A stretch of DNA of 36,849 bases from IMG/VR virus record IMGVR_UViG_2663763326_000006, one strand, 5' to 3'. This stretch comes from a virus (lineage: Duplodnaviria > Heunggongvirae > Uroviricota > Caudoviricetes). Positions 1 to 36,849 of the stretch are shown here, one piece after another. The notes beneath the pieces are model-generated. The model worked only from the letters and a program-made list of their open reading frames with translations. It had not been told where the DNA came from and ran no database searches. Position 1 is the first letter of the stretch, and each line of letters begins with the position of its first letter. Both the position numbers and the translations under genes were made by a program.

Positions 1-390
1 TTACTCTTTTTTCTCCGTATCTGCATCGGGTTCATCAGCAAATAGCTTGCCCTGCATCCGATCCAGTTCTTCTTTTCTTACCCGCTTAACCACGCTGTAG
101 ACCCACTGAAGCGAAACACCAAATTTGCGGGCCAGTTCGTGGTGGTTGCGTCCGTTAAACTCCCTGAAGATTTCCCGGTCGCGCTGACTGACCTTCCATA
201 CCATGCCCATCGGGAAATAAACGTTTTGCCCGCCCCAGACCTGCATCATTCGGTTCGCGACGGCCTGACCAATCTGGTCGGCAACTTCGGGCTCAATATC
301 AATAATCTCGCGAACGGTCTCAGAGGTATGCTGTGCCAGTTCCACCAGGAGTTCCGGCCCCTTACTTCGAAACTGATTCAGGTCGCTCAT
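1..390 (-). CDS. mor: Mor/C-family transcription activator (129 aa)
   Basis: C-terminal HTH segment ELARKFGVSLQWVYSVVKR typical of Mor/C family; lies directly downstream of the GemA-like gene, as mor does in Mu; stop codon at window position 1-3. Confidence 0.7.
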   Translation of the reverse strand: MSDLNQFRSKGPELLVELAQHTSETVREIIDIEPEVADQIGQAVANRMMQVWGGQNVYFPMGMVWKVSQRDREIFREFNGRNHHELARKFGVSLQWVYSVVKRVRKEELDRMQGKLFADEPDADTEKKE

Positions 391-811
391 GTTTGACTCC
401 CGCAGCTCTGCGCTGCCACTTCTTCAGTTTCTCAATAACACTGCTTGCCTGTTCAGTACTGAGCCAGCGCAGGGCGCTGATGCCCGTTTCCCGCTTGATC
501 CACCTCGCTAATGCATTTTCTGAACGGTCACGAACAATGCCGGCAGCAGCCATTTCAAGCCATAGCGCACGAATTTTCCTGGACTGCGGATGGTTATCAA
601 GCGGTAAACCGGAGCTGGCTTTTCTGGCTGGTTTAACGCGAAAGCCTTTCTTTTTCATGGATTCCAGCACGCAGTTTAGTTGTGTGGTATCCATTCCTTT
701 GGTTGAGGCTTTACCGGTCAGCCCCTGTAACATCTGGCGGTAGGTGTCTTCATCCATACCCAGTTCATTACGGGCAATATGGATAAGCTGTATCAGGCGT
801 TTTTTCTGCAT
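362..811 (-). CDS. gemA: GemA-like early protein (Mu gp16 family, 149 aa)
   Basis: Size, basic C-terminus and position immediately upstream of the Mor-like gene; 29-nt overlap with the next gene suggests coupling. Confidence 0.55.
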   Translation of the reverse strand: MQKKRLIQLIHIARNELGMDEDTYRQMLQGLTGKASTKGMDTTQLNCVLESMKKKGFRVKPARKASSGLPLDNHPQSRKIRALWLEMAAAGIVRDRSENALARWIKRETGISALRWLSTEQASSVIEKLKKWQRRAAGVKHERPESVSK

Positions 812-812
812 A

Positions 813-1019
813 TCATCTCCTTTTTTTCAGTCTGTCGGCAACAATGTCGGTTGCAGCTGGCAGGGTGACTGGCCAGAACAACATGACGGCGGTCATGTAC
901 AGGATGTAATGCGCGGTGTCGTAGTGCCTGCCATAGCCCAGGGAACGATGAAGTCTTGCGCTGCATGATCCTGCGTACATATACCAGAAAAGAAAACAGA
1001 CAATGGTTTCAGTAGTCAT
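813..1019 (-). CDS. small membrane protein (68 aa)
   Basis: Start chosen at internal ATG (1017-1019) with GGAGG RBS 7 nt upstream; hydrophobic segments; the longer 120-aa ORF start has no RBS. Confidence 0.45.
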   Translation of the reverse strand: MTTETIVCFLFWYMYAGSCSARLHRSLGYGRHYDTAHYILYMTAVMLFWPVTLPAATDIVADRLKKRR

Positions 1020-1239
1020 TCTGAATACCTCCCCATTCGATATGAATATTACGGGCAGCAATGACAGGGTCGTTATTCCACCATGCACCTGACATGTATT
1101 TTTCAACCTGTTCGCGTCCGGCAATAACACCAATTGTGATCCCCGGCCTGACGTTCTTAAAAAAGGCGCGGGCAAAAAGGTATCTGGCAGATATTCGGCA
1201 GGCTTTTAATTTCCGGCTTTTACCTGATAGCGTAATCAT
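1009..1239 (-). CDS. hypothetical early-region protein (76 aa)
   Basis: ORF tightly packed in the minus-strand operon with short overlaps to both neighbours. Confidence 0.4.
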   Translation of the reverse strand: MITLSGKSRKLKACRISARYLFARAFFKNVRPGITIGVIAGREQVEKYMSGAWWNNDPVIAARNIHIEWGGIQNDY

Positions 1240-1919
1240 CTGGCCTCCAGTTTCTGTTGTTCCTGCCCACTGACCGGGCGGTGCAGTCTGACGTTCTGCC
1301 CTTCACGAAACCCCGCATAGCGCGAGGCGTCGCCATTGCGGCTTCTTCCCGGTTTACGCGCCCTGGTGGTTTGCGTCTGCGGGTATTTATGTTCCAGCCA
1401 CTGCTGCATCAGTTCACGCTCATCATCGGTCAGGGCAAAGGACTGTATTTCACTGATAACGGCCAGCACCCAGCCTTCGGCAAACTGGTCTCCACGGCTG
1501 GTGCGGGTGGCGGTTTTTATTCTTTTGTTCTGTGCACTGATATACTGCTGACGCGCCTTTTTCAGCTGACGGGCCAGCACTTCCCAGGTGTATGCAGCCA
1601 GTGCCGCACGTTCCCGGTTGCCGTAGAACCCCACAGACGGATGCGTGCCGGGGTGAATGATGGAGTTAACACCAAATACCTCGCGGATGATGTTCATCAG
1701 GCCCAGCATGTAGCGCGGTGGACGGAGACTGCCTGTCGGCCAGTAGTGACTGATGGTTTCATCAATATCACTCATAGCAATGTCGGAATGTGTGATGCCG
1801 TGAACATCCATCAGTTTACGGGCTCGGCGCAGTGCCAGAGCGGCCTCGTGCGGGTTGCCGGATGCGGCCAGCGCCAGCAACTTTTTCAGTTTCTCAATGT
1901 GTTTATTCTGGTCTGTCAT
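1236..1919 (-). CDS. DUF2786-like phage protein (about 227 aa)
   Basis: N-terminus after internal Met reads IEKLKKLLALAASGNPHEAALALRRARKLMDVHG, resembling the DUF2786 N-terminal motif; start overlaps upstream stop. Confidence 0.5.
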   Translation of the reverse strand: MTDQNKHIEKLKKLLALAASGNPHEAALALRRARKLMDVHGITHSDIAMSDIDETISHYWPTGSLRPPRYMLGLMNIIREVFGVNSIIHPGTHPSVGFYGNRERAALAAYTWEVLARQLKKARQQYISAQNKRIKTATRTSRGDQFAEGWVLAVISEIQSFALTDDERELMQQWLEHKYPQTQTTRARKPGRSRNGDASRYAGFREGQNVRLHRPVSGQEQQKLEAR

Positions 1920-2131
1920 TGTTCTGTATCTCCGGTATTTTTCTGCCGTTTCCATGCCCGGACAGCGTCGGACAGCTCTTTCAGGCTGTATGCTGCTTTA
2001 AGCTTTTCCCATAACCACTGTGTTGTTATGTGCATCAGCAGGGCAGCCAGGGCTGCCCCCGCACTGAGGCATGTCGCCAGGCCAGTAAGAATCAGTGTCC
2101 ATGCGGTGATTTCCCTGAGTATGTCAGCCAT
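1916..2131 (-). CDS. small membrane protein (71 aa)
   Basis: Single long hydrophobic stretch WTLILTGLATCLSAGAALAALLMHI; operon context. Confidence 0.45.
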   Translation of the reverse strand: MADILREITAWTLILTGLATCLSAGAALAALLMHITTQWLWEKLKAAYSLKELSDAVRAWKRQKNTGDTEQ

Positions 2132-2145
2132 TGAATGCCTCCCGG

Positions 2146-2442
2146 TTACTCGTTCGTGTAAATCACGCCCAGTCGTGCAGCCAGACGTTCCAGTTTTTTC
2201 TGTTTGTGGAAGTCAATCAGCCGGTCCATCCCCTGAAGGCGCAGTTGCTCTGTCATGATTTCCACGTCTGCCAGCTCTGCCGCGAGGTCACTTTCGCTGC
2301 CCTGTCCGTTCAGGTTGCGGGCGGCACTGGCCGCCAGTTCAGCGGCCTCTTCTGCCAGTTTCAGGGCCTGTGCGTCCGGCCCGAAACGCTGCAGGGCCAG
2401 ACGGTAGAGGGCGGTGCGGGTGAGTTCGGTGTTTCGTGTCAT
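2146..2442 (-). CDS. MazG-like nucleotide pyrophosphohydrolase domain protein (98 aa)
   Basis: EEAAEL (E-E-x-x-E) and ELADVEI motifs spaced as in MazG-like NTP-PPase domains. Confidence 0.45.
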   Translation of the reverse strand: MTRNTELTRTALYRLALQRFGPDAQALKLAEEAAELAASAARNLNGQGSESDLAAELADVEIMTEQLRLQGMDRLIDFHKQKKLERLAARLGVIYTNE

Positions 2443-2451
2443 GCCGCGCCC

Positions 2452-2724
2452 TCAGTGCTTCCGGCTGACGGTGATGTGCAGGCCGCCTTCTGCAGTGGTT
2501 TCCATCCGGTACGGCACCTCATGCTCTGCCGTGTGGGTGAGTGTGTTCATCAGTACCTGCAGGGCAGCCTCCTTTCCGTTGGTCGCCACAATGGCCTGTG
2601 TGGCCATGCTGATTAGCGCCGTCAGGACGTGCTTCACATCGGTGAGGTCGCGGCATTCACACTCGTTGACATAGTGTTCAACAAGGGTTCGGGTGCGCTG
2701 TCGTGCTTCCTGTGGGGTAATCAT
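2452..2724 (-). CDS. hypothetical early-region protein (90 aa)
   Basis: ORF with 4-nt start/stop overlap to the upstream zinc-ribbon gene. Confidence 0.4.
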   Translation of the reverse strand: MITPQEARQRTRTLVEHYVNECECRDLTDVKHVLTALISMATQAIVATNGKEAALQVLMNTLTHTAEHEVPYRMETTAEGGLHITVSRKH

Positions 2725-2915
2725 TGCGAGTCCTCCCTGTCAGGGCGGGAGAATTCCATGACGGGCACGTCTGCCGAAAAATGCTGGCTGCAGTACGGGC
2801 AGACCAGGGTGACGCGTACCGCAGGGATGTGGTATTTACCGGACATCACGGCGATGGCGCTGTGAAAACGCAGGGCTGTTATATCCCTCTCGCACTGAAT
2901 ACATTTAAATATCAT
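2721..2915 (-). CDS. zinc-ribbon protein, Com-like (64 aa)
   Basis: Two Cys pairs (CIQC ... CPYC); GAGGAG RBS upstream of the start. Confidence 0.5.
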   Translation of the reverse strand: MIFKCIQCERDITALRFHSAIAVMSGKYHIPAVRVTLVCPYCSQHFSADVPVMEFSRPDREDSQ

Positions 2916-3012
2916 GATTTAATTCTCCTCTGTTTCCGGCGTGCAGAAGCCCGCGGCGCTGACGTCGGAATAAAAAAGAAAATGTTTTTATTAAATAATT
3001 AACGTGGTGTGT

Positions 3013-3543
3013 TTACTGCACATCCTGCTCAAAAGGAATTATTGAAAAATCCTCAATGTCGCTTTTAATGGAAATACCGGGAATATTTTTCACGGCCTCT
3101 TTTTCATTCAGGATAGCGTCTTTATTTATTTCCTCTTTTACACGAATAAAGCGCTCAAGCCCCAGACGTCTCAGTAATTCAATAACATTATCCGCCCCAC
3201 GGATACTGACTGATGGCGGACGGTTTCGCCACTGCACCTCGCCGGTGGTGAGGTTAGCGAACTTCACCTTCCCGTTGCCGGTCAGTTCATCACGGTGTGC
3301 CTCACACCATGTCTGAATACCGGACTGCAGTTCGGCCATGCGTTTTTTCAGGCTCTCGGTGAGCGGGGCATAACGTGCGGTGATATCGCCAATGGCGTCA
3401 TTCATTTCTGTTTCAGCCCTGACCAGTTCACGTTGTGCGTCACCGAGTAGTCTGATTCCCTCAATGACCTCTTCACGTGTCCCCGGCACCCAGAGTGCTG
3501 CTGCGGCCTTGATACGTTTTGCACCTTTTGTACTTTTTGCCAT
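3013..3543 (-). CDS. gam: host-nuclease inhibitor Gam (Mu Gam family, 176 aa)
   Basis: N-terminus MAKSTKGAKRIKAAAALWVP, internal VSIRGADNVIELLRRLGLERFIRVKEEINKDAIL and C-terminal DFSIIPFEQ match Mu Gam pattern and length. Confidence 0.8.
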   Translation of the reverse strand: MAKSTKGAKRIKAAAALWVPGTREEVIEGIRLLGDAQRELVRAETEMNDAIGDITARYAPLTESLKKRMAELQSGIQTWCEAHRDELTGNGKVKFANLTTGEVQWRNRPPSVSIRGADNVIELLRRLGLERFIRVKEEINKDAILNEKEAVKNIPGISIKSDIEDFSIIPFEQDVQ

Positions 3544-8052: not shown

Positions 8053-8367
8053 TTACAAACGACTACCTGAAATGACACGTTGGTTAATTTCGTTAATACG
8101 ATCCTGTGCACGTGCCATCTCGTTACTGTGGGCCATGGCGATCTGCAGTAACTGGATGCCCGGTGCAAAACGTCCGTTCTCCAGTTTCAGAGCCAGCCCT
8201 TCTTCAATGAGGGTGTTGAGTGCCCGGTTGATGTTTGCCGGTGACTCGTGCAGTGCTGTCGCCAGTTCACCGTTAGAAATACCGTTCAGGGCATGACCGC
8301 GCAGCGCTTTGAGTACCCGGAGGATGCGACTGCCGGAGCTTGAAACATTCGTCTTACTCATCTGCAT
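8053..8367 (-). CDS. winged-helix DNA-binding regulator, IclR-N-terminal-like (104 aa)
   Basis: Motif RILRVLKALRGHALNGISNGELATALHESPANINRALNTLIEEGL resembles an IclR-type HTH. Confidence 0.45.
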   Translation of the reverse strand: MQMSKTNVSSSGSRILRVLKALRGHALNGISNGELATALHESPANINRALNTLIEEGLALKLENGRFAPGIQLLQIAMAHSNEMARAQDRINEINQRVISGSRL

Positions 8368-8413
8368 ACCTCTTTTGCGATATGTGATAACCTTTTACAA
8401 AGACTCAAAATAT

Positions 8414-8602
8414 TTAGGCCGCCTGAGCTGTTGATTTCAGTCCCAACTTCACGGCGATTTCATGGGATTTACCGTAACGGGCTTTGGTCTGCCCGTTGAG
8501 AACGCGGTATACCTCATTGCGGTTGTAGCCGTTTTCTTCTGCCCAGCGGGTGAAAGTGATCCCGCGCTGGCGGAAGAGAGCTTTGACTTGTTCTGCAGTC
8601 AT
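8414..8602 (-). CDS. ner: Ner-like small DNA-binding protein (62 aa)
   Basis: Pattern ALFRQRGITFTRWAEENGYNRNEVYRVL...GKSHEIAVKLGLK parallels Mu Ner/Nlp; first gene of leftward operon, divergent from repressor. Confidence 0.55.
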   Translation of the reverse strand: MTAEQVKALFRQRGITFTRWAEENGYNRNEVYRVLNGQTKARYGKSHEIAVKLGLKSTAQAA

Positions 8603-8654
8603 CGTTGTCTCCTTTGTTGATGCAATGATGTTTGCCTTATATGTGTTAGATTAT

Positions 8655-8672
8655 TGCTCATAATTATGAGCA
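8655..8672. promoter_or_regulatory. perfect 18-bp palindrome TGCTCATAATTATGAGCA, putative operator
   Basis: Lies in the 93-bp AT-rich gap between the divergent Ner-like and repressor starts. Confidence 0.5.
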
Positions 8673-8695
8673 TATCAAGATAGAGATTCACTTTT

Positions 8696-9052
8696 ATGAG
8701 CAAATATATAGGAGAGCGCGTTATTTCTGTGAGGAAGAAAGCAGGGTTGAACCAGAGAGAATTTGCAGCTCGTTTAGGTATTTCTAATGGTGGTATCAGT
8801 CAGATTGAAAATGGAAAGGCGATGCCTGGAGGGGAGTTTCTGTTAAAGATGCATCAAGAGTTTAATGTTGATGTAAATTGGTTGCTCACTGGAATGAGCA
8901 CAGATGGTATGACTAGAAACCAGAATCAAATTTCCCCAGAAAAACAAAAACTAATAGATACTTTTGACGACATGACACCAGACCAACAACGCTCATTTCT
9001 TGAGATTGGGCGATTCTATACTCAGCCAAAACCAGGAAAAATCGCAGGCTGA
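8696..9052 (+). CDS. XRE-family HTH repressor (118 aa)
   Basis: N-terminal HTH LNQREFAARLGISNGGISQIENG; markedly AT-rich gene; divergent from early operon. Confidence 0.6.
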   Translation: MSKYIGERVISVRKKAGLNQREFAARLGISNGGISQIENGKAMPGGEFLLKMHQEFNVDVNWLLTGMSTDGMTRNQNQISPEKQKLIDTFDDMTPDQQRSFLEIGRFYTQPKPGKIAG

Positions 9053-9137
9053 TACTGACCCGGACACAAAGGACAGGTGGTTGATCTGGATGCTTTCAGA
9101 AAACATCGCCAGTGACATAGTGGAAGTTGTTTGGTTT

Positions 9138-9168
9138 ACCGGAAAGCATTGTGCTTTCCGGTTTTGTT
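9138..9168 (+). terminator. rho-independent terminator after repressor gene
   Basis: CCGGAAAGCA-TTGT-GCTTTCCGG stem-loop followed by TTTTGTTT. Confidence 0.6.
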
Positions 9169-9933
9169 TCAGAAGTTGCAGATTAGCAGTTCACGGCGCG
9201 GCGTGGGTTTACCCGCCAGACTGTAGTTGATATTCACTGTCTGTATGTTCAGTCCAGTGAACACCTCGCGCATCTGCGGGATGTCGTTCACCGAAATTAT
9301 CATTTTTCCTCTGATGCACCGGGCCAGCTCTGCCAGCCGCGAGTAGTTCCCTTCAGGAAAATCCACACCATAGCCTTCCGTACCCAGGTACGGTGGGTCG
9401 CAGTAGAACAGCGTGTGCGGACGATCATAACGCTCAATGCACTGTTGCCAGTCCATGTGTTCTATGACTGTTCTGGAAAGCCGCAGGTGTGCCGCTGACA
9501 GTTCTTCTTCAATACGTAGCAGGTTGAAGCGTGGCGGGGATGTGGTGGAGGTACCGAAGCTGTGCTCTGCCACCTTGCCGCCAAACGCCTGCTTCTGAAG
9601 GTAGTAGAACCGTGCCGCACGCTGGATATCCGTCAGTGTTTCTTCCGGGGTGATCTGCAGCCATTTGTAGATCTGACGGCTGACCAGCGCCCATTTGAAC
9701 TGGCGGACAAATTCTTCCAGGTGATGCTTTACCACCCGGTACAGATTCACCAGTTCACCGTTGATATCATTGATGACTTCGATCTTGCCGGGTGTCTTAA
9801 GAAAATAGAGCGCTGCTGCCCCACAAAACGGCTCCACATAACATTCATGCGCCGGAAACAGCGGCAGAATGTGTTTTGCAAGGCGGCGTTTGCCACCAAT
9901 CCACGGCACGATGGGTAATGTCTGCATTTTCAT
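9169..9933 (-). CDS. Dam-family N6-adenine DNA methyltransferase (about 254 aa)
   Basis: N-terminal PWIGGKRRL motif and catalytic DPPY (FYCDPPYLG); start chosen at MKMQTLP. Confidence 0.8.
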   Translation of the reverse strand: MKMQTLPIVPWIGGKRRLAKHILPLFPAHECYVEPFCGAAALYFLKTPGKIEVINDINGELVNLYRVVKHHLEEFVRQFKWALVSRQIYKWLQITPEETLTDIQRAARFYYLQKQAFGGKVAEHSFGTSTTSPPRFNLLRIEEELSAAHLRLSRTVIEHMDWQQCIERYDRPHTLFYCDPPYLGTEGYGVDFPEGNYSRLAELARCIRGKMIISVNDIPQMREVFTGLNIQTVNINYSLAGKPTPRRELLICNF

Positions 9934-10123
9934 AATCTGCAAGCCTTTTACAATTATTAAAAAATATGGCAGTCTGGTCAGGTCTCGCGAGACTGACTGA
10001 ACCTTGGTCGGCTCACAGCGCATTCCTGTGGGGCGATGACCAGCCCGGCTTTCGGGTGCCGGGCTGGTCGTTCTTTCATGATGCGGCAGGGATGGCGGGA
10101 TTTCTGTTAATGTGGTTTAGGGA

Positions 10124-10339
10124 TTATCCGGGGCGATTTTCTGACCTTATCCGGTCCAGGGCATAAGTAATACCTTCTGCAAAAACAGAAGTATCAAACT
10201 GCTTTTGTATTCCCTGAAAATGAAAAGCGGCACGACAGACACTCAGTTCTCCGCGGTATAACCGGATAATATCTTCCAGAACATTGTTCACTGCTTCAGC
10301 ACGGCGCTGATGTTCTGTTAACGTTAATCGGGGATTCAT
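10124..10339 (-). CDS. hypothetical small protein (71 aa)
   Basis: ORF upstream of the methyltransferase; start codon overlaps the divergent start of the 134-aa ORF. Confidence 0.35.
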   Translation of the reverse strand: MNPRLTLTEHQRRAEAVNNVLEDIIRLYRGELSVCRAAFHFQGIQKQFDTSVFAEGITYALDRIRSENRPG

Positions 10340-10742
10340 GATGCACTCCTTAAATGATGATTTTTATGTACTCACCGGCAAAATATTCTGCCGATTACTG
10401 AACACGCATCCGGCACCTCAGGTTTTGATTTATTCTGGTTTTTTCGATATCCCGGACCAGGTTGATCACGACCAGAAAAAGTGCCGGTGTTTTATTGATA
10501 CGCTGATATGGCTTCGGGATAACAGCTATATTCGTTACTCTCAGTTGCTGGCTGTGGGAGCGGCTGATGTCGTCCTCACGGAAAAAACGCTCTGTCTGCT
10601 CAATGCCATGCCGACCTTTCTGCAGCCCCGGCCCGTACCATTTAAAGAGTCACTTCTGGATGCAGTAAAAACCGGTGAAAATGCAGTCATCGCTGAATGC
10701 GTATCCCGGATTATGCGTTACGTGTTTAATGAACGTAAGTGA
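10338..10742 (+). CDS. hypothetical protein (134 aa)
   Basis: Lower-GC ORF filling the 378-bp gap in the minus-strand gene run; 25-bp convergent overlap with the NTPase gene. Confidence 0.4.
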   Translation: MMHSLNDDFYVLTGKIFCRLLNTHPAPQVLIYSGFFDIPDQVDHDQKKCRCFIDTLIWLRDNSYIRYSQLLAVGAADVVLTEKTLCLLNAMPTFLQPRPVPFKESLLDAVKTGENAVIAECVSRIMRYVFNERK

Positions 10743-11446
10743 GGTTTATCCGCTGTCTGCATAATCCCGATAGCCAGTGCGAGGGGAAGTAATTCCGGGG
10801 AAACTCTTTCAAACAGCGATGCCCATTCTCCTCTCGCCATCACTCTGTCCAGCCCGCCCTCCAGTTGCATTTCAGCAATCTTCCTGATTTCCCGGAACAA
10901 CGCCGCTTTGATCTCTTCATGCTCAGCTTTATTTTCCGGTGTCAGAAGGTATTCGTCGAAGAACCGGGGAGGCTGGTTAATCGGGATGTGTTCCTGTTTG
11001 CCGTACTTCGGGGACGAACAACATTCTGTTGACTGACCAGTGAGTTTACGTAACTCCTTCATGAGCAGCTCCTGATCGTAAACTGTCATCAGTGCCGCAA
11101 TGGTGGCATGCAGTGCATCGGGCAGTATCCAGGGTTGCCGGCCCGTGGGGCATATAACATCCAGCAGCTCATTCGTCCGACAGATACGCTCCTCGCCGTA
11201 TGACAACAGGCCCTGTCCCGTGTATTCCTCCAGCCTGATCACTGTGCCAGCCCGTGGTTTCTGCCATGTGCTCAGATCATCCCCACTCATACGGCGCTCA
11301 CCGTCCACGTCTGCGGCGTCGACAATGACGCTGTTTCCGAATTCCTGTTTCACCACTTCCTCTATTCGCGCCAGTACGTAACTTTTACCGCTGCCCACAG
11401 GACCGGACACGGTGACAGTGATGACCGGATTCAGTGTCTGCGTCAT
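10718..11446 (-). CDS. P-loop NTPase of unknown function (242 aa)
   Basis: N-terminal Walker A VSGPVGSGKSYV; the rest has no motif I can place. Confidence 0.55.
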   Translation of the reverse strand: MTQTLNPVITVTVSGPVGSGKSYVLARIEEVVKQEFGNSVIVDAADVDGERRMSGDDLSTWQKPRAGTVIRLEEYTGQGLLSYGEERICRTNELLDVICPTGRQPWILPDALHATIAALMTVYDQELLMKELRKLTGQSTECCSSPKYGKQEHIPINQPPRFFDEYLLTPENKAEHEEIKAALFREIRKIAEMQLEGGLDRVMARGEWASLFERVSPELLPLALAIGIMQTADKPHLRSLNT

Positions 11447-11516
11447 ATCGTATTCTCCTCTGTGAATAATTCATCGTTTATCCTGCACATCCCGTATCCC
11501 CGGCTCTCTTAACGCG

Positions 11517-11526
11517 CTTTAAAATC
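11517..11526 (+). promoter_or_regulatory. CTTTAAAATC motif, candidate late-promoter element upstream of lysis operon
   Basis: One of four near-identical 10-mers 31-56 bp upstream of late operon starts; flanked by GCGC. Confidence 0.35.
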
Positions 11527-11576
11527 CTTCGCGCCCTGTATTTGTGATGCTGTCTCCACCAGATAAGGAGACACAC

Positions 11577-11927
11577 ATGAAAAACCTGAAAAAATTCATT
11601 CCCCCTGTTAAAAAACCTCGCCTCAGCGGCTGGCTGCTGACCTCAGTGCTGTTGCTGGGCACCATCGCTCTGGTCTCACCACAGCAGCTGCCTGTTGTGA
11701 TCTACAAGCTGGCACTCATCACGCTGGCAGCAGTGCTGGGTTACTGGCTTGACCGTTCGCTCTTCCCCAAAGCCCGTCCCGGTCAGTACCTGAAACATGA
11801 CGACAGGCTGATGGCTGAAGGGCGTTTCCCGGTACAGACCGGCCTTCACCTGGTGTTTTCTGCTGCGTTAATCCGCCGTGCACTGATTGTTGCAGCGGTC
11901 TGCCTGGCTGTTGCGATGGGGCTTTAA
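11577..11927 (+). CDS. putative holin, three TM segments (about 116 aa)
   Basis: AAGGAG RBS 7 nt upstream of ATG at 11577; three hydrophobic helices; immediately precedes endolysin. Confidence 0.5.
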   Translation: MKNLKKFIPPVKKPRLSGWLLTSVLLLGTIALVSPQQLPVVIYKLALITLAAVLGYWLDRSLFPKARPGQYLKHDDRLMAEGRFPVQTGLHLVFSAALIRRALIVAAVCLAVAMGL

Positions 11928-31235: not shown

Positions 31236-31248
31236 GCTTTTTAAACGC

Positions 31249-31258
31249 CTTTAATATC
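31249..31258 (+). promoter_or_regulatory. CTTTAATATC motif, candidate late-promoter element upstream of baseplate W
   Basis: 31 bp upstream of ATG 31289; followed by GGGGCA-ATAC-TGCCCC hairpin abutting the start codon. Confidence 0.3.
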
Positions 31259-31288: not shown

Positions 31289-31635
31289 ATGAAAACAACC
31301 TCAGTATTCTGGCAACCAGCCCTGCAGGCTCCCGGCGAAATTGTCCGGGGGCTGGATGATATCCGGCAGGCGATTCAAATTATCCTGCGGACTCCCCGCG
31401 GCAGCGACCCGCATCGCCCGGAGTTCGGCAGCAATCTGCATCTTTATATCGACTGGCCTGTAGACCGGGCCATTCCGCATGTGGTGCGCGAATCCGTCGA
31501 TGCCATCCGGCGCTGGGAGCCCGCTGCCAGCTTATGTCAGTTAAACCCGCCGTCGACGGCGAACATCTTACGCTCCGGGTGAGCTGGAAAGGCTCAGACG
31601 GACAGACCCGGACTCAGGAGCTGCTATGGCGCTGA
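31289..31635 (+). pseudogene. baseplate protein W (GPW/gp25 family) with apparent single-base frame break
   Basis: Frame of ATG 31289 reads through RRWEP then junk; -1 frame continues RCQLMSVKPAVDGEHLTLRVSWKGSDGQTRTQELLWR to a stop overlapping J; break at CCC 31520-31522. Confidence 0.65.
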
Positions 31636-34554: not shown

Positions 34555-34699
34555 GTTGGTTTAGGAGAAGGCTCGGCGCTACCCGTTGGTGTGCCTGTTC
34601 CGTGGCCCACCGCCACACCGCCAGCAGGCTGGTTAAAGTGCGACGGGCGCGCCTTTACAAAAGAACAATATCCTGTTCTGGCCAGAGTCTACCCGACCC
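34555..34699 (+). other. second tail-collar cassette fragment, direct repeat of 34115-34262, truncated by IS26
   Basis: About 145 bp roughly 95 percent identical to the start of the collar-domain region, ending at the IS26 boundary. Confidence 0.6.
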
Positions 34700-35519
34700 G
34701 GCACTGTTGCAAAGTTAGCGATGAGGCAGCCTTTTGTCTTATTCAAAGGCCTTACATTTCAAAAACTCTGCTTACCAGGCGCATTTCGCCCAGGGGATCA
34801 CCATAATAAAATGCTGAGGCCTGGCCTTTGCGTAGTGCACGCATCACCTCAATACCTTTGATGGTGGCGTAAGCCGTCTTCATGGATTTAAATCCCAGCG
34901 TGGCGCCGATTATCCGTTTCAGTTTGCCATGATCGCATTCAATCACGTTGTTCCGGTACTTAATCTGTCGGTGTTCAACGTCAGACGGGCACCGGCCTTC
35001 GCGTTTGAGCAGAGCAAGCGCGCGACCATAGGCGGGCGCTTTATCCGTGTTGATGAATCGCGGGATCTGCCACTTCTTCACGTTGTTGAGGATTTTACCC
35101 AGAAACCGGTATGCAGCTTTGCTGTTACGACGGGAGGAGAGATAAAAATCGACAGTGCGGCCCCGGCTGTCGACGGCCCGGTACAGATACGCCCAGCGGC
35201 CATTGACCTTCACGTAGGTTTCATCCATGTGCCACGGGCAAAGATCGGAAGGGTTACGCCAGTACCAGCGCAGCCGTTTTTCCATTTCAGGCGCATAACG
35301 CTGAACCCAGCGGTAAATCGTGGAGTGATCGACATTCACTCCGCGTTCAGCCAGCATCTCCTGCAGCTCACGGTAACTGATGCCGTATTTGCAGTACCAG
35401 CGTACGGCCCACAGAATGATGTCACGCTGAAAATGCCGGCCTTTGAATGGGTTCATGTGCAGCTCCATCAGCAAAAGGGGATGATAAGTTTATCACCACC
35501 GACTATTTGCAACAGTGCC
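34700..35519 (-). mobile_element. IS26 (820 bp, IS6 family), complete
   Basis: 14-bp terminal inverted repeats GGCACTGTTGCAAA at 34700-34713 and 35506-35519; flanking 8-mers CCCGACCC and GCCGCCGC differ. Confidence 0.95.
34752..35456 (-). CDS. tnpA: IS26 transposase Tnp26 (234 aa)
   Basis: Protein begins MNPFKGRHFQRDIILWAVRWYCKYGISYRELQEM, recognised as IS26 Tnp26. Confidence 0.95.
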   Translation of the reverse strand: MNPFKGRHFQRDIILWAVRWYCKYGISYRELQEMLAERGVNVDHSTIYRWVQRYAPEMEKRLRWYWRNPSDLCPWHMDETYVKVNGRWAYLYRAVDSRGRTVDFYLSSRRNSKAAYRFLGKILNNVKKWQIPRFINTDKAPAYGRALALLKREGRCPSDVEHRQIKYRNNVIECDHGKLKRIIGATLGFKSMKTAYATIKGIEVMRALRKGQASAFYYGDPLGEMRLVSRVFEM

Positions 35520-35633
35520 GGCCGCCGCCGGCATCGGCCTGGCGAACAGGAAACCCTGCACCGTGTCGCAACCCGCCTGCCGCAACCACGCAAGGCAGTC
35601 GGGTGTTTCCACACCCTCGGCTACCACCTCCAT
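35520..35633 (-). pseudogene. tnpM: Tn21-type urf2/tnpM remnant (EAL-domain C-terminal fragment), cut by IS26
   Basis: Minus strand encodes [37 protein letters not shown]; bounded by IRi on one side and IS26 on the other. Confidence 0.65.
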
Positions 35634-35658
35634 TGTCGTTTTCAGAAGACGGCTGCAC
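35634..35658. repeat. IRi, 25-bp terminal inverted repeat at the intI1 end of a class 1 integron
   Basis: Sequence TGTCGTTTTCAGAAGACGGCTGCAC. Confidence 0.85.
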
Positions 35659-35835
35659 TGAACGTCAGAAGCCGACTGCACTATAGCAGCGGAGGGGTTG
35701 GATCCATCAGGCAACGACGGGCTGCTGCCGGCCATCAGCGGACGCAGGGAGGACTTTCCGCAACCGGCCGTTCGATGCGGCACCGATGGCCTTCGCGCAG
35801 GGGTAGTGAATCCGCCAGGATTGACTTGCGCTGCC

Positions 35836-36849
35836 CTACCTCTCACTAGTGAGGGGCGGCAGCGCATCAAGCGGTGAGCGCACTCCGGCACCGCCAACTT
35901 TCAGCACATGCGTGTAAATCATCGTCGTAGAGACGTCGGAATGGCCGAGCAGATCCTGCACGGTTCGAATGTCGTAACCGCTGCGGAGCAAGGCCGTCGC
36001 GAACGAGTGGCGGAGGGTGTGCGGTGTGGCGGGCTTCGTGATGCCTGCTTGTTCTACGGCACGTTTGAAGGCGCGCTGAAAGGTCTGGTCATACATGTGA
36101 TGGCGACGCACGACACCGCTCCGTGGATCGGTCGAATGCGTGTGCTGCGCAAAAACCCAGAACCACGGCCAGGAATGCCCGGCGCGCGGATACTTCCGCT
36201 CAAGGGCGTCGGGAAGCGCAACGCCGCTGCGGCCCTCGGCCTGGTCCTTCAGCCACCATGCCCGTGCACGCGACAGCTGCTCGCGCAGGCTGGGTGCCAA
36301 GCTCTCGGGTAACATCAAGGCCCGATCCTTGGAGCCCTTGCCCTCCCGCACGATGATCGTGCCGTGATCGAAATCCAGATCCTTGACCCGCAGTTGCAAA
36401 CCCTCACTGATCCGCATGCCCGTTCCATACAGAAGCTGGGCGAACAAACGATGCTCGCCTTCCAGAAAACCGAGGATGCGAACCACTTCATCCGGGGTCA
36501 GCACCACCGGCAAGCGCCGCGACGGCCGAGGTCTTCCGATCTCCTGAAGCCAGGGCAGATCCGTGCACAGCACCTTGCCGTAGAAGAACAGCAAGGCCGC
36601 CAATGCCTGACGATGCGTGGAGACCGAAACCTTGCGCTCGTTCGCCAGCCAGGACAGAAATGCCTCGACTTCGCTGCTGCCCAAGGTTGCCGGGTGACGC
36701 ACACCGTGGAAACGGATGAAGGCACGAACCCAGTGGACATAAGCCTGTTCGGTTCGTAAACTGTAATGCAAGTAGCGTATGCGCTCACGCAACTGGTCCA
36801 GAACCTTGACCGAACGCAGCGGTGGTAACGGCGCAGTGGCGGTTTTCAT
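35836..36849 (-). CDS. intI1: class 1 integron integrase IntI1 (337 aa, complete; start codon at window end)
   Basis: Protein [40 protein letters not shown] ... [11 protein letters not shown] recognised as IntI1; R32 and H39 present. Confidence 0.97.
36734..36762 (+). promoter_or_regulatory. integron cassette promoter Pc, weak PcW variant (-35 TGGACA, 17-bp spacer, -10 TAAACT)
   Basis: Hexamers at 36734-36739 and 36757-36762 on the strand opposite intI1; no TGN directly upstream of the -10. Confidence 0.8.

Follow-up and report, generated by a model that had tools for sequence, protein, structure and literature searches.

We analyzed a 36,849-nucleotide (nt) stretch of DNA, the Caudoviricetes record IMGVR_UViG_2663763326_000006 (hereafter, the window), with a focus on the four-gene cassette at positions 9169-11446. 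A preliminary description had regarded this cassette as a low-GC, horizontally acquired block and as the best candidate in the window for an undescribed anti-restriction, exclusion or defense system. [quoted passage not shown] The four genes are as follows.

9169-10023, (−) strand: methylase open reading frame (ORF), an open frame of 284 amino acids (aa)
10124-10339, (−) strand: 71-aa gene, family phrog_4490
10338-10742, (+) strand: 134-aa gene (start at 10338 or 10341), family phrog_2266
10718-11446, (−) strand: 242-aa gene, family phrog_3787

All four are real genes. The ORF list, the family matches and RefSeq agree with the preliminary description in placing them at these coordinates, between the immunity region, with its helix-turn-helix (HTH) repressor of the HTH_3 family, and the lysis genes. 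The matches to family profiles are full-length, with E-values of 8.7e-29 for the methylase (PF02086), 7e-53 for phrog_4490, 3e-44 for phrog_2266 and 5e-170 for phrog_3787, and the three phrog families are of unknown function. RefSeq annotates all four genes in the ST131 strain EC958; the 134-aa ORF on the (+) strand is missing from the PhiKM annotation, yet it is present in RefSeq and conserved elsewhere. A 2.6-kb segment spanning the cassette is 100% identical to Escherichia phage PhiKM (Bcepmuvirus), and the cassette is 99.9% identical to EC958 and 99.9-100% identical to many other E. coli chromosomes. Among 5,426 complete E. coli genomes, 481 (~9%) contain 80% or more of the cassette and 626 contain any part of it. 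With this distribution, and with the methylase already published as M.EcoMIV, the cassette cannot be called previously undescribed. The region is an ordinary, widespread accessory slot that holds nothing categorically new, the architecture of the 71-aa/134-aa gene pair being its one unusual feature.

The GC content of the block is indeed low overall (51.4% versus 55.3% for the window, within the lowest 9.4% of windows of the same size), but only the pair deviates. We found that the 71-aa gene has 44% GC (35% at third codon positions, GC3) and the 134-aa gene 46%, whereas the methylase (53%; GC3, 63%) and the 242-aa gene (53%; GC3, 59%) have values typical of the phage; the repressor gene next to the cassette is the most AT-rich gene (41% GC). 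Since GC content marks the pair only, we consider the methylase and the 242-aa gene native and the pair foreign. As judged from its composition (44-46% versus 55% GC), its occurrence in both BcepMu-like and P2-like phages and its terminator-bounded arrangement in one P2-like locus (L025), the pair is a moron. The proposal of horizontal acquisition thus holds for the 71-aa/134-aa pair, which has low GC and recurs in a P2-like defense hotspot, but not for the block as a whole.

The gene content of the slot varies among related BcepMu-like prophages, in line with its description as an accessory region. The cassette fills the gap between repressor and holin; in BcepMu itself, this gap is taken by the three genes gp18-gp20, which read rightward and are unrelated to those of the cassette. 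Serratia relatives have, after the repressor, the methylase, then genes of 73, 139 and 89 aa, followed by the holin. In one relative (locus L092), a protein with the N-terminal domain of the 242-aa protein is followed directly by the methylase, without the pair; in others (L083-L088 and L090), this domain occurs with unrelated genes and without the methylase, and two of these (L083 and L090) also lack the pair. In Klebsiella phage KP12, the methylase is alone in the slot. The alternative genes found in the BcepMu-like slot had no match to a defense model, and some of them encode lipoproteins. The pair, the N-terminal domain of the 242-aa protein and the methylase therefore each occur without the others, and the idea of one four-gene system does not hold.

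A scan of the four genes against defense profiles (PADLOC-DB v2) returned a match for the methylase alone, to the generic type II methylase model MTase_II (9e-112); the 71-aa and 134-aa proteins had no matches, and the 242-aa protein gave only P-loop noise with an E-value of 0.003 or worse. A search of positions 8300-11700 against Rfam found no RNA family. In the published data from TraDIS (sequencing of transposon insertion sites) in EC958 (Phan et al., PMC3789825 supplement), the four cassette genes had 30, 39, 27 and 78 insertion sites and were scored non-essential, the repressor had a single insertion and was scored essential, and serum selection was without effect for any cassette gene. 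This tolerance speaks against a lysogen-phase function required for growth, and also against the genes being an addiction or toxin-antitoxin module.

It is consequently very improbable that the four genes form one undescribed anti-restriction, exclusion or defense system expressed from the prophage. The position of the slot beside the immunity region, the company of a methylase with proteins of unknown function and the presence of pair homologs in the P2 defense hotspot would all suit such a system. They are outweighed by the independent occurrence of the genes in relatives, by a composition that separates native from foreign parts, by PADLOC matches to a generic methylase only, by the methylase being barely transcribed in lysogens and without an attributable motif there (PMC4659465), and by a gene orientation and promoter dyad that indicate lytic-phase expression (see below). 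Part of what the preliminary description had itself named as speaking against its proposal was found, i.e., no TraDIS phenotype and no methylation motif attributable to the cassette in lysogens.

The methylase gene and its flanks contain the following features.

9169-9933, (−) strand: D12-class N6-adenine DNA methyltransferase, 254 aa from M31, with the frame open to 10023
9934-10123: structured spacer that separates the methylase from the 71-aa gene (folding z-score of −4.2 on the (−) strand and −4.4 on the (+) strand)
9138-9162, (+) strand: strong hairpin terminator 3′ of the repressor gene, with an 11-bp stem followed by a T run

The identification of a clear Dam-family methyltransferase was borne out by D12-class profile matches, which establish the class of the enzyme: PF02086 scored 101.4 bits (cutoff, 22) and TIGR00571 116.0 bits, the latter marginal against its cutoff of 114.85. 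The translation contains the catalytic DPPY motif (in LFYCDPPYLG) and the S-adenosylmethionine-binding motif FCGAA (in EPFCGAAALYF), and among solved structures DpnM and E. coli Dam come closest, both only distantly similar (1e-17 to 1e-14). Translation probably starts at M31 (position 9933), giving 254 aa, because RefSeq uses M31 and because the ribosome-binding site (RBS) and start are conserved in a Serratia relative. The methylase is an orphan in that its neighbors (the repressor, the 71-aa protein, the 134-aa predicted winged-helix protein and the mosaic 242-aa protein) have no nuclease domain. It is the same gene as M.EcoMIV, or EC958_1101, of the ST131 prophage Phi2, which lies beside the essential HTH repressor EC958_1102. 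In the TraDIS table, EC958_1101 is a COG0338 methylase of 746 nt whose neighbors are genes of 200 and 383 nt and the HTH repressor EC958_1102 (Phan et al., PMC3789825), which confirms the assignment of the tag to the methylase. A previous study could assign no methylation motif to M.EcoMIV in lysogens, reported that none of its homologs with >65% identity has a determined recognition site, and revealed that its transcription in log-phase lysogens is significantly lower than that of host dam (Forde et al. 2015, PMC4659465).

One alternative is that the methylase serves phage regulation and not protection against restriction, either by controlling how promoters or the ends of transposons are methylated, in the way that Dam acts on Mu mom, IS10 and Tn5, or through support of lysogeny, as in 933W. 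Transposable elements use Dam methylation in their control, and the methylase occupies the same position in the E. coli, Serratia and Klebsiella relatives. Dam methylation as a control of transposable elements is also discussed by the authors who described the enzyme in lysogens (PMC4659465). We nevertheless consider regulation quite unlikely as its purpose. The gene is absent from several related prophages (L083-L088 and L090) and is therefore no core gene, lysogens tolerate insertions in it (PMC3789825 supplement), and the host already provides Dam.

The terminator at 9138-9162 would separate transcription of the repressor from the convergent methylase gene. On the other side of the methylase, the spacer contains a perfect, GC-rich 12-bp hairpin at 10038-10069, followed by a T-rich stretch only when read on the (+) strand, i.e., antisense to the leader of the methylase, and weak sigma-70-like sites stand face to face at 9927-9981. 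A Serratia relative (L004, 5741-5770) also has a hairpin at this position, of the same polarity but of another sequence. The spacer hairpin may shield the 134-aa gene from transcripts that read through rightward, or it may be the terminus of a short antisense RNA (~120 nt, from near 9961). A Com-like role for the 71-aa protein was also considered and ruled out, as the protein has no zinc-finger cysteines and the hairpin leaves the methylase RBS uncovered.

Next to the 242-aa gene, at the opposite end of the cassette, we identified a putative promoter region.

11480-11551, both directions: candidate bidirectional activator-dependent late promoter, with the dyad TTAACGCGCTTTAA at 11509-11522
11546-11551, rightward, to the holin gene: −10-like GATGCT, starting 30.5 nt from the dyad center
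11485-11480, leftward, to the 242-aa gene: mirrored −10-like CAGGAT, starting 30.5 nt from the dyad center

The Mor and C activators of phage Mu bind dyads centered near −43 of promoters without a −35 element. We infer a bidirectional late promoter because the spacing of the dyad fits this rule and because a Mor homolog is present in the window. The 130-bp gap between the 242-aa gene and the holin gene shows conserved blocks across six relatives, and the pattern has seven matches, against a mean of 0.9 in shuffled sequence. Wherever present, the gene for the N-terminal domain of the 242-aa protein is the first gene divergent from holin, and the left block, with the leftward −10, occurs only where there is a leftward gene; KP12, without such a gene, does not have it. 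In another relative (L089), the methylase is immediately preceded by a second dyad. Because a single dyad sits midway between mirrored weak −10 elements, the leftward unit is probably switched on with the lysis genes and silent in the lysogen, which would explain the low transcription of the methylase in lysogens. Elsewhere in the window, a second copy of the dyad, TTAAACGCCTTTAA, occurs at 31241-31254, with AATACT 30.5 nt from its center, just upstream of an ORF that starts at 31290 and is taken here as a baseplate gene; the dyad at 31241 looks like a second late promoter.

The 71-aa and 134-aa genes are arranged in an uncommon way. Their start codons overlap in the tetranucleotide CATG (10337-10340), the AAGGAG RBS of the 71-aa gene lies within the first codons of the 134-aa gene, and the RBS of the 134-aa gene lies within the 71-aa gene. 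At its other end, the 134-aa gene overlaps the 3′ end of the 242-aa gene by 25 nt (10718-10742). This geometry is conserved: in all ~60 loci examined, a divergent small ORF of 63-73 aa overlaps its partner at CATG, with each RBS in the first codons of the other gene. With start codons and RBSs overlapping in this way, each mRNA is complementary to the other across the two initiation regions, and expression of one gene should therefore block the other, as far as the anatomy of the locus suggests.

For the 134-aa protein, the predicted fold is a winged helix, extended by helical structure at the C-terminus. Homologs of the protein form 88 clusters, confined to Enterobacterales and without a Pfam domain, and they split into a BcepMu-like and a P2-like group with ~31% identity between them; at the sequence level, the protein showed no membership in the MarR, PadR, Rrf2 or IclR families. 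The 71-aa protein has no recognizable domain, and its Serratia ortholog shares 31% identity with it (E-value, 3e-11). Pfam did not reproduce the name DUF2513 that UniRef attaches to the Serratia homolog, and no paper was found to use it. Within the 134-aa gene, an 18-bp near-palindrome (10376-10393) falls in sequence that codes for a conserved peptide and is for this reason not informative as an operator.

A 126-aa paralog of the predicted winged-helix protein (hhalign probability, 98.6%) is present in L008 (7188-7857) and also in L009, L019 and L077, where its insertion, which includes a duplicated 5′ end of the methylase gene, separates the 71-aa gene from the methylase; it has no small partner. 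In L008 and similar loci, its gene is divergent from the methylase, i.e., in a regulator/target arrangement. The CATG geometry, the P2-slot context and this methylase-divergent paralog lead us to favor a local winged-helix regulator with a divergent target.

In P2-like loci, the pair lies between the portal gene and gpA, without the methylase or the 242-aa protein. This portal-gpA (gpQ-gpA) interval of P2-like phages is a defense hotspot in which many unknown genes proved defensive (PMC9122126, PMC13586616). We found the pair ~530 bp from cos in nearly all P2-like loci, and, at this near-constant distance, it is the gene unit that comes first within the right end of the genome, with defense cargo inserted on either side. 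The P2 cohesive-end sequence GGCGAGGCGGGGAAAGCAC, with 0-3 mismatches, was observed ~530 bp left of the pair in L025-L068. Cargo near the pair in the P2-like loci sampled included a type VI retron, PDC-S04, PDC-M48, an HEC-06/Orf5 protein and an AriA-like ATPase. A scan of genome contigs gave only three loci. Terminators flank the pair on both sides in L025, the only P2-like locus scanned for terminators. We dropped the notion that, in P2-like phages, two divergent cargo operons begin with the pair, given a strong terminator behind the small gene and cos before the leftward cargo.

These observations bear on whether the pair is itself a stand-alone, two-gene anti-phage defense or anti-defense moron of P2-like and BcepMu-like prophages, with a winged-helix sensor or regulator and a small effector. 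Such a moron would be expected to look much like the pair, which is autonomous, terminator-bounded (L025) and low in GC, has been transferred between unrelated phage lineages and sits in a hotspot where unknown genes proved defensive (PMC9122126, PMC13586616). We still regard this explanation as unlikely, since PADLOC gave no match, neither protein has an enzymatic or membrane effector domain, and the paralog is paired directly with a methylase gene. Moreover, the pair is constant at a fixed distance from cos while the cargo around it varies, so the role of an anchor or regulator fits better than that of cargo.

A toxin-antitoxin or addiction module is barely plausible as an explanation of the pair. 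Two small-protein genes on mobile elements, one with a DNA-binding-like fold as in many antitoxins, would fit this pattern, but insertions occur at normal density in both genes (39 and 27 sites in EC958, with 27 in the 71-aa gene), which are non-essential, whereas the repressor is essential (PMC3789825 supplement). In addition, the two genes are divergent and not co-transcribed, and neither matched a toxin or antitoxin family.

The 242-aa protein, which the preliminary description had called an orphan P-loop nucleoside triphosphatase (NTPase), is a mosaic of at least the following parts.

11219-11446, (−) strand: Walker A mini-domain, the N-terminal ~76 residues, with the order strand, GPVGSGKS (residues 15-22), helix, strand, strand
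11030-11203, (−) strand: middle module, residues 82-139, with 41-48% identity to two other family members (P0037 and P0039) by BLASTP
10763-10918, (−) strand: C-terminal module, residues 177-228, with 46% identity to the Serratia 89-aa protein (E-value, 2e-11)

Close homologs of the whole protein occur in E. coli only, whereas residues 1-76 alone are widespread (phmmer against 1.84 billion representatives). Sharing is limited to the N-terminal domain in 51 out of 58 listed proteins compared by BLASTP. Listed family proteins are between ~40 and 364 aa long; stand-alone forms that are complete have 78-86 aa, and the shortest entries are probably fragments. The middle module stands at the C-terminus of the two other family members, which indicates that module order is shuffled. 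It is deleted from 182-aa E. coli variants, which lack residues 52-124, and in Serratia prophages a stand-alone 89-aa protein, homologous to the C-terminal module, takes the position of the 242-aa protein.

The Walker A motif is real, with G20, K21 and W61 invariant across the family alignment (G20 and K21 in 16 diverse homologs), although some members have GKN in place of GK[ST]. It belongs, however, to an element of only 75 residues without a conserved Walker B acid, the column of the candidate D43 containing D, E, I, V, T and K. Matches to Pfam P-loop families were all below cutoff and spanned ~30-40 residues. A profile search of the PDB gave matches confined to the strand/P-loop/helix element (positions 10-50) of ABC ATPases, kinases, PilT and designed phosphate-loop proteins (E-value, ~1e-4), and no family profile recognized a full-size alpha/beta NTPase core. 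The NTPase label is therefore unproven, and on the sequence the protein is better described as a phosphate-loop mini-domain fused to shuffled modules.

Could the 242-aa protein nonetheless be an active P-loop NTPase effector, such as an exclusion or abortive-infection ATPase? The invariant G and K of the Walker A motif, the alignment of the profile with the P-loop element of real ATPases and the name 'ABC transporter ATPase' that NCBI gives to truncated forms would favor it. We judge it improbable, given a domain of ~75 residues that also exists as stand-alone proteins of 78-86 aa, GKN members, the lack of a conserved Walker B acid, sub-threshold Pfam matches of 30-40 residues and a remainder made of shuffled modules. 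A structure model of the 242-aa protein, built on a shallow alignment, was unusable (mean predicted local distance difference test score, 45.7).

Overall, the explanation that fits best, and to which we give about an even chance, is that the cassette consists of a leftward late methylase unit, an inserted two-gene moron and a mosaic 242-aa protein. The ancestral unit would start beside the holin promoter and run leftward from the 242-aa gene to the methylase. The dyad would be the likely site of the phage's Mor/C-type late activator, driving transcription in both directions, so that the unit comes on late, together with the lysis genes, and is off in the lysogen. The methylase may then modify replicating phage DNA before packaging, and the progeny would escape restriction in the next host; by analogy, this would be the job done by mom in Mu or by dam in P1 and T4. 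The low-GC pair would have been inserted into the leftward unit, and leftward late transcription would run antisense through the entire winged-helix gene. The complementary 5′ ends of the two pair mRNAs may antagonize each other, and the predicted winged-helix protein would bind DNA locally and regulate the leftward gene or genes divergent from it, making the pair a self-contained either/or switch. The 242-aa protein would not be a classical NTPase but a ~75-residue phosphate-loop domain joined to shuffled modules.

Several points weigh against this explanation. The leftward CAGGAT agrees with the rightward −10 elements only at two key positions, the KP12 methylase must use its own promoter, and the late timing of the leftward unit is read from the sequence. 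If the methylase targets GATC, it would be redundant in a Dam+ host, which makes an anti-restriction benefit doubtful. The spacer hairpin, with its (+)-strand T tail, and the weak facing promoters suggest extra control. As for the pair, homology between the small partners of the BcepMu-like and P2-like groups was not detectable by BLASTP or hhalign, no convincing sigma-70-like promoter for either gene was found within the partner gene, and the P2 hotspot context allows a defense role.

A bolder, two-part reading goes further. The pair would serve as an antisense switch, portable and mutually exclusive, or else as a compact defense or anti-defense unit of two genes, that gates neighboring cargo at the edge of accessory and defense slots in two unrelated phage lineages; separately, the 75-residue Walker A domain would be a natural minimal phosphate-loop module and the constant head of a polymorphic, shuffled family. 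We advance it tentatively and hold it to be doubtful.

The remainder of the window has the layout of a BcepMu-like prophage joined to a resistance element.

Leftward: early operon with a Ner-like gene, an IclR-type HTH gene, a DUF3102 gene, transposase, a MuB-like gene, Gam, GemA and Mor
1-390, (−) strand: Mor-family activator, the homolog identified in the window
8696-9052, (+) strand: HTH_3 repressor, the gene beside the cassette
From 11577 rightward, (+) strand: holin, SLT and late genes
35836-36849, (−) strand: class 1 integron integrase gene intI1, 337 aa, with local GC up to 62%

The start of the window coincides with the stop codon of the Mor-family activator gene, and the left end of the prophage is therefore missing; BcepMu has about 360 bp beyond its Mor-family activator gene. 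At the other end, positions 34697-36849 are non-phage DNA, namely, IS26 and intI1. Identical sequences occur on E. coli plasmids and chromosomes by the thousands; at its right end, the prophage is thus cut by a resistance element or abuts one. A 41-aa ORF annotated in PhiKM (8993-9118, (−) strand), on the opposite strand over the 3′ end of the repressor gene, had no PHROG match and is probably not a gene. Two genes, EC958_1112 and EC958_1114, which belong to the serum resistome of EC958, with an altered O-antigen pattern in the EC958_1112 mutant (Phan et al., PMC3789825), are about ten genes past the methylase, probably in the early region of this prophage (window positions about 1-3500).

For a cassette carried by ~9% of complete E. 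coli genomes, including pandemic ST131, it is useful to know that it is not a hidden four-gene defense system. Its methylase is already catalogued as M.EcoMIV and nearly silent in lysogens. Uncharacterized and mildly interesting are the mutually antisense start/RBS pair, kept by two lineages beside defense cargo, and the minimal P-loop-headed mosaic family. If the late-promoter reading is true, this phage group would have swapped the Mom of Mu for a Dam-type methylase, in a convergent late self-protection of phage DNA.

Among known systems, the com-mom operon of Mu, which is late and C-activated, resembles the cassette in belonging to a Mu-type phage, in having a DNA-modification enzyme with a small ORF before its gene, and in the position, about −42.5, of the dyad in the candidate promoter, as for Mor/C-type activators. 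The cassette differs in encoding a D12 methylase and not Mom, in a 71-aa protein without the Com-like zinc finger, in its position beside the lysis genes instead of the right end of the genome, and in that its late timing is a prediction. The methylase shares the D12 class, the DPPY motif, the lack of a cognate nuclease and a phage-borne location with the orphan Dam-family enzymes P1 Dam, T4 Dam and 933W Dam, but it is only distantly similar to solved GATC enzymes (E-values of 1e-14 to 1e-17); from M.EcoMIV (EC958_1101), the same gene, it differs in nothing.

The face-to-face switches of P2 and 186 (C/Cox and CI/Apl) and bacterial excludons are like the pair in their divergent genes and, as predicted for the pair, in 5′-overlapping transcripts and mutual interference, whereas in the pair the overlap reaches the start codons and both RBSs, with no intergenic operator region, and the pair proteins are unrelated to C, Cox, CI and Apl. 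Winged-helix local regulators of the MarR, PadR, Rrf2 and IclR types share with the 134-aa protein the fold (predicted here) and a gene divergent from the presumed target. The controller (C) proteins of restriction-modification systems are HTH_3 proteins and not winged helices; the 126-aa paralog has a gene divergent from the methylase. Finally, the Walker A domain shares the strand/GxxGxGK[ST]/helix element with P-loop NTPases and designed minimal phosphate-loop proteins, the designed protein 6c2u and real ATPases being matched equally, but it is a natural domain of ~75 residues, without Walker B or a complete core, that is fused to shuffled modules.

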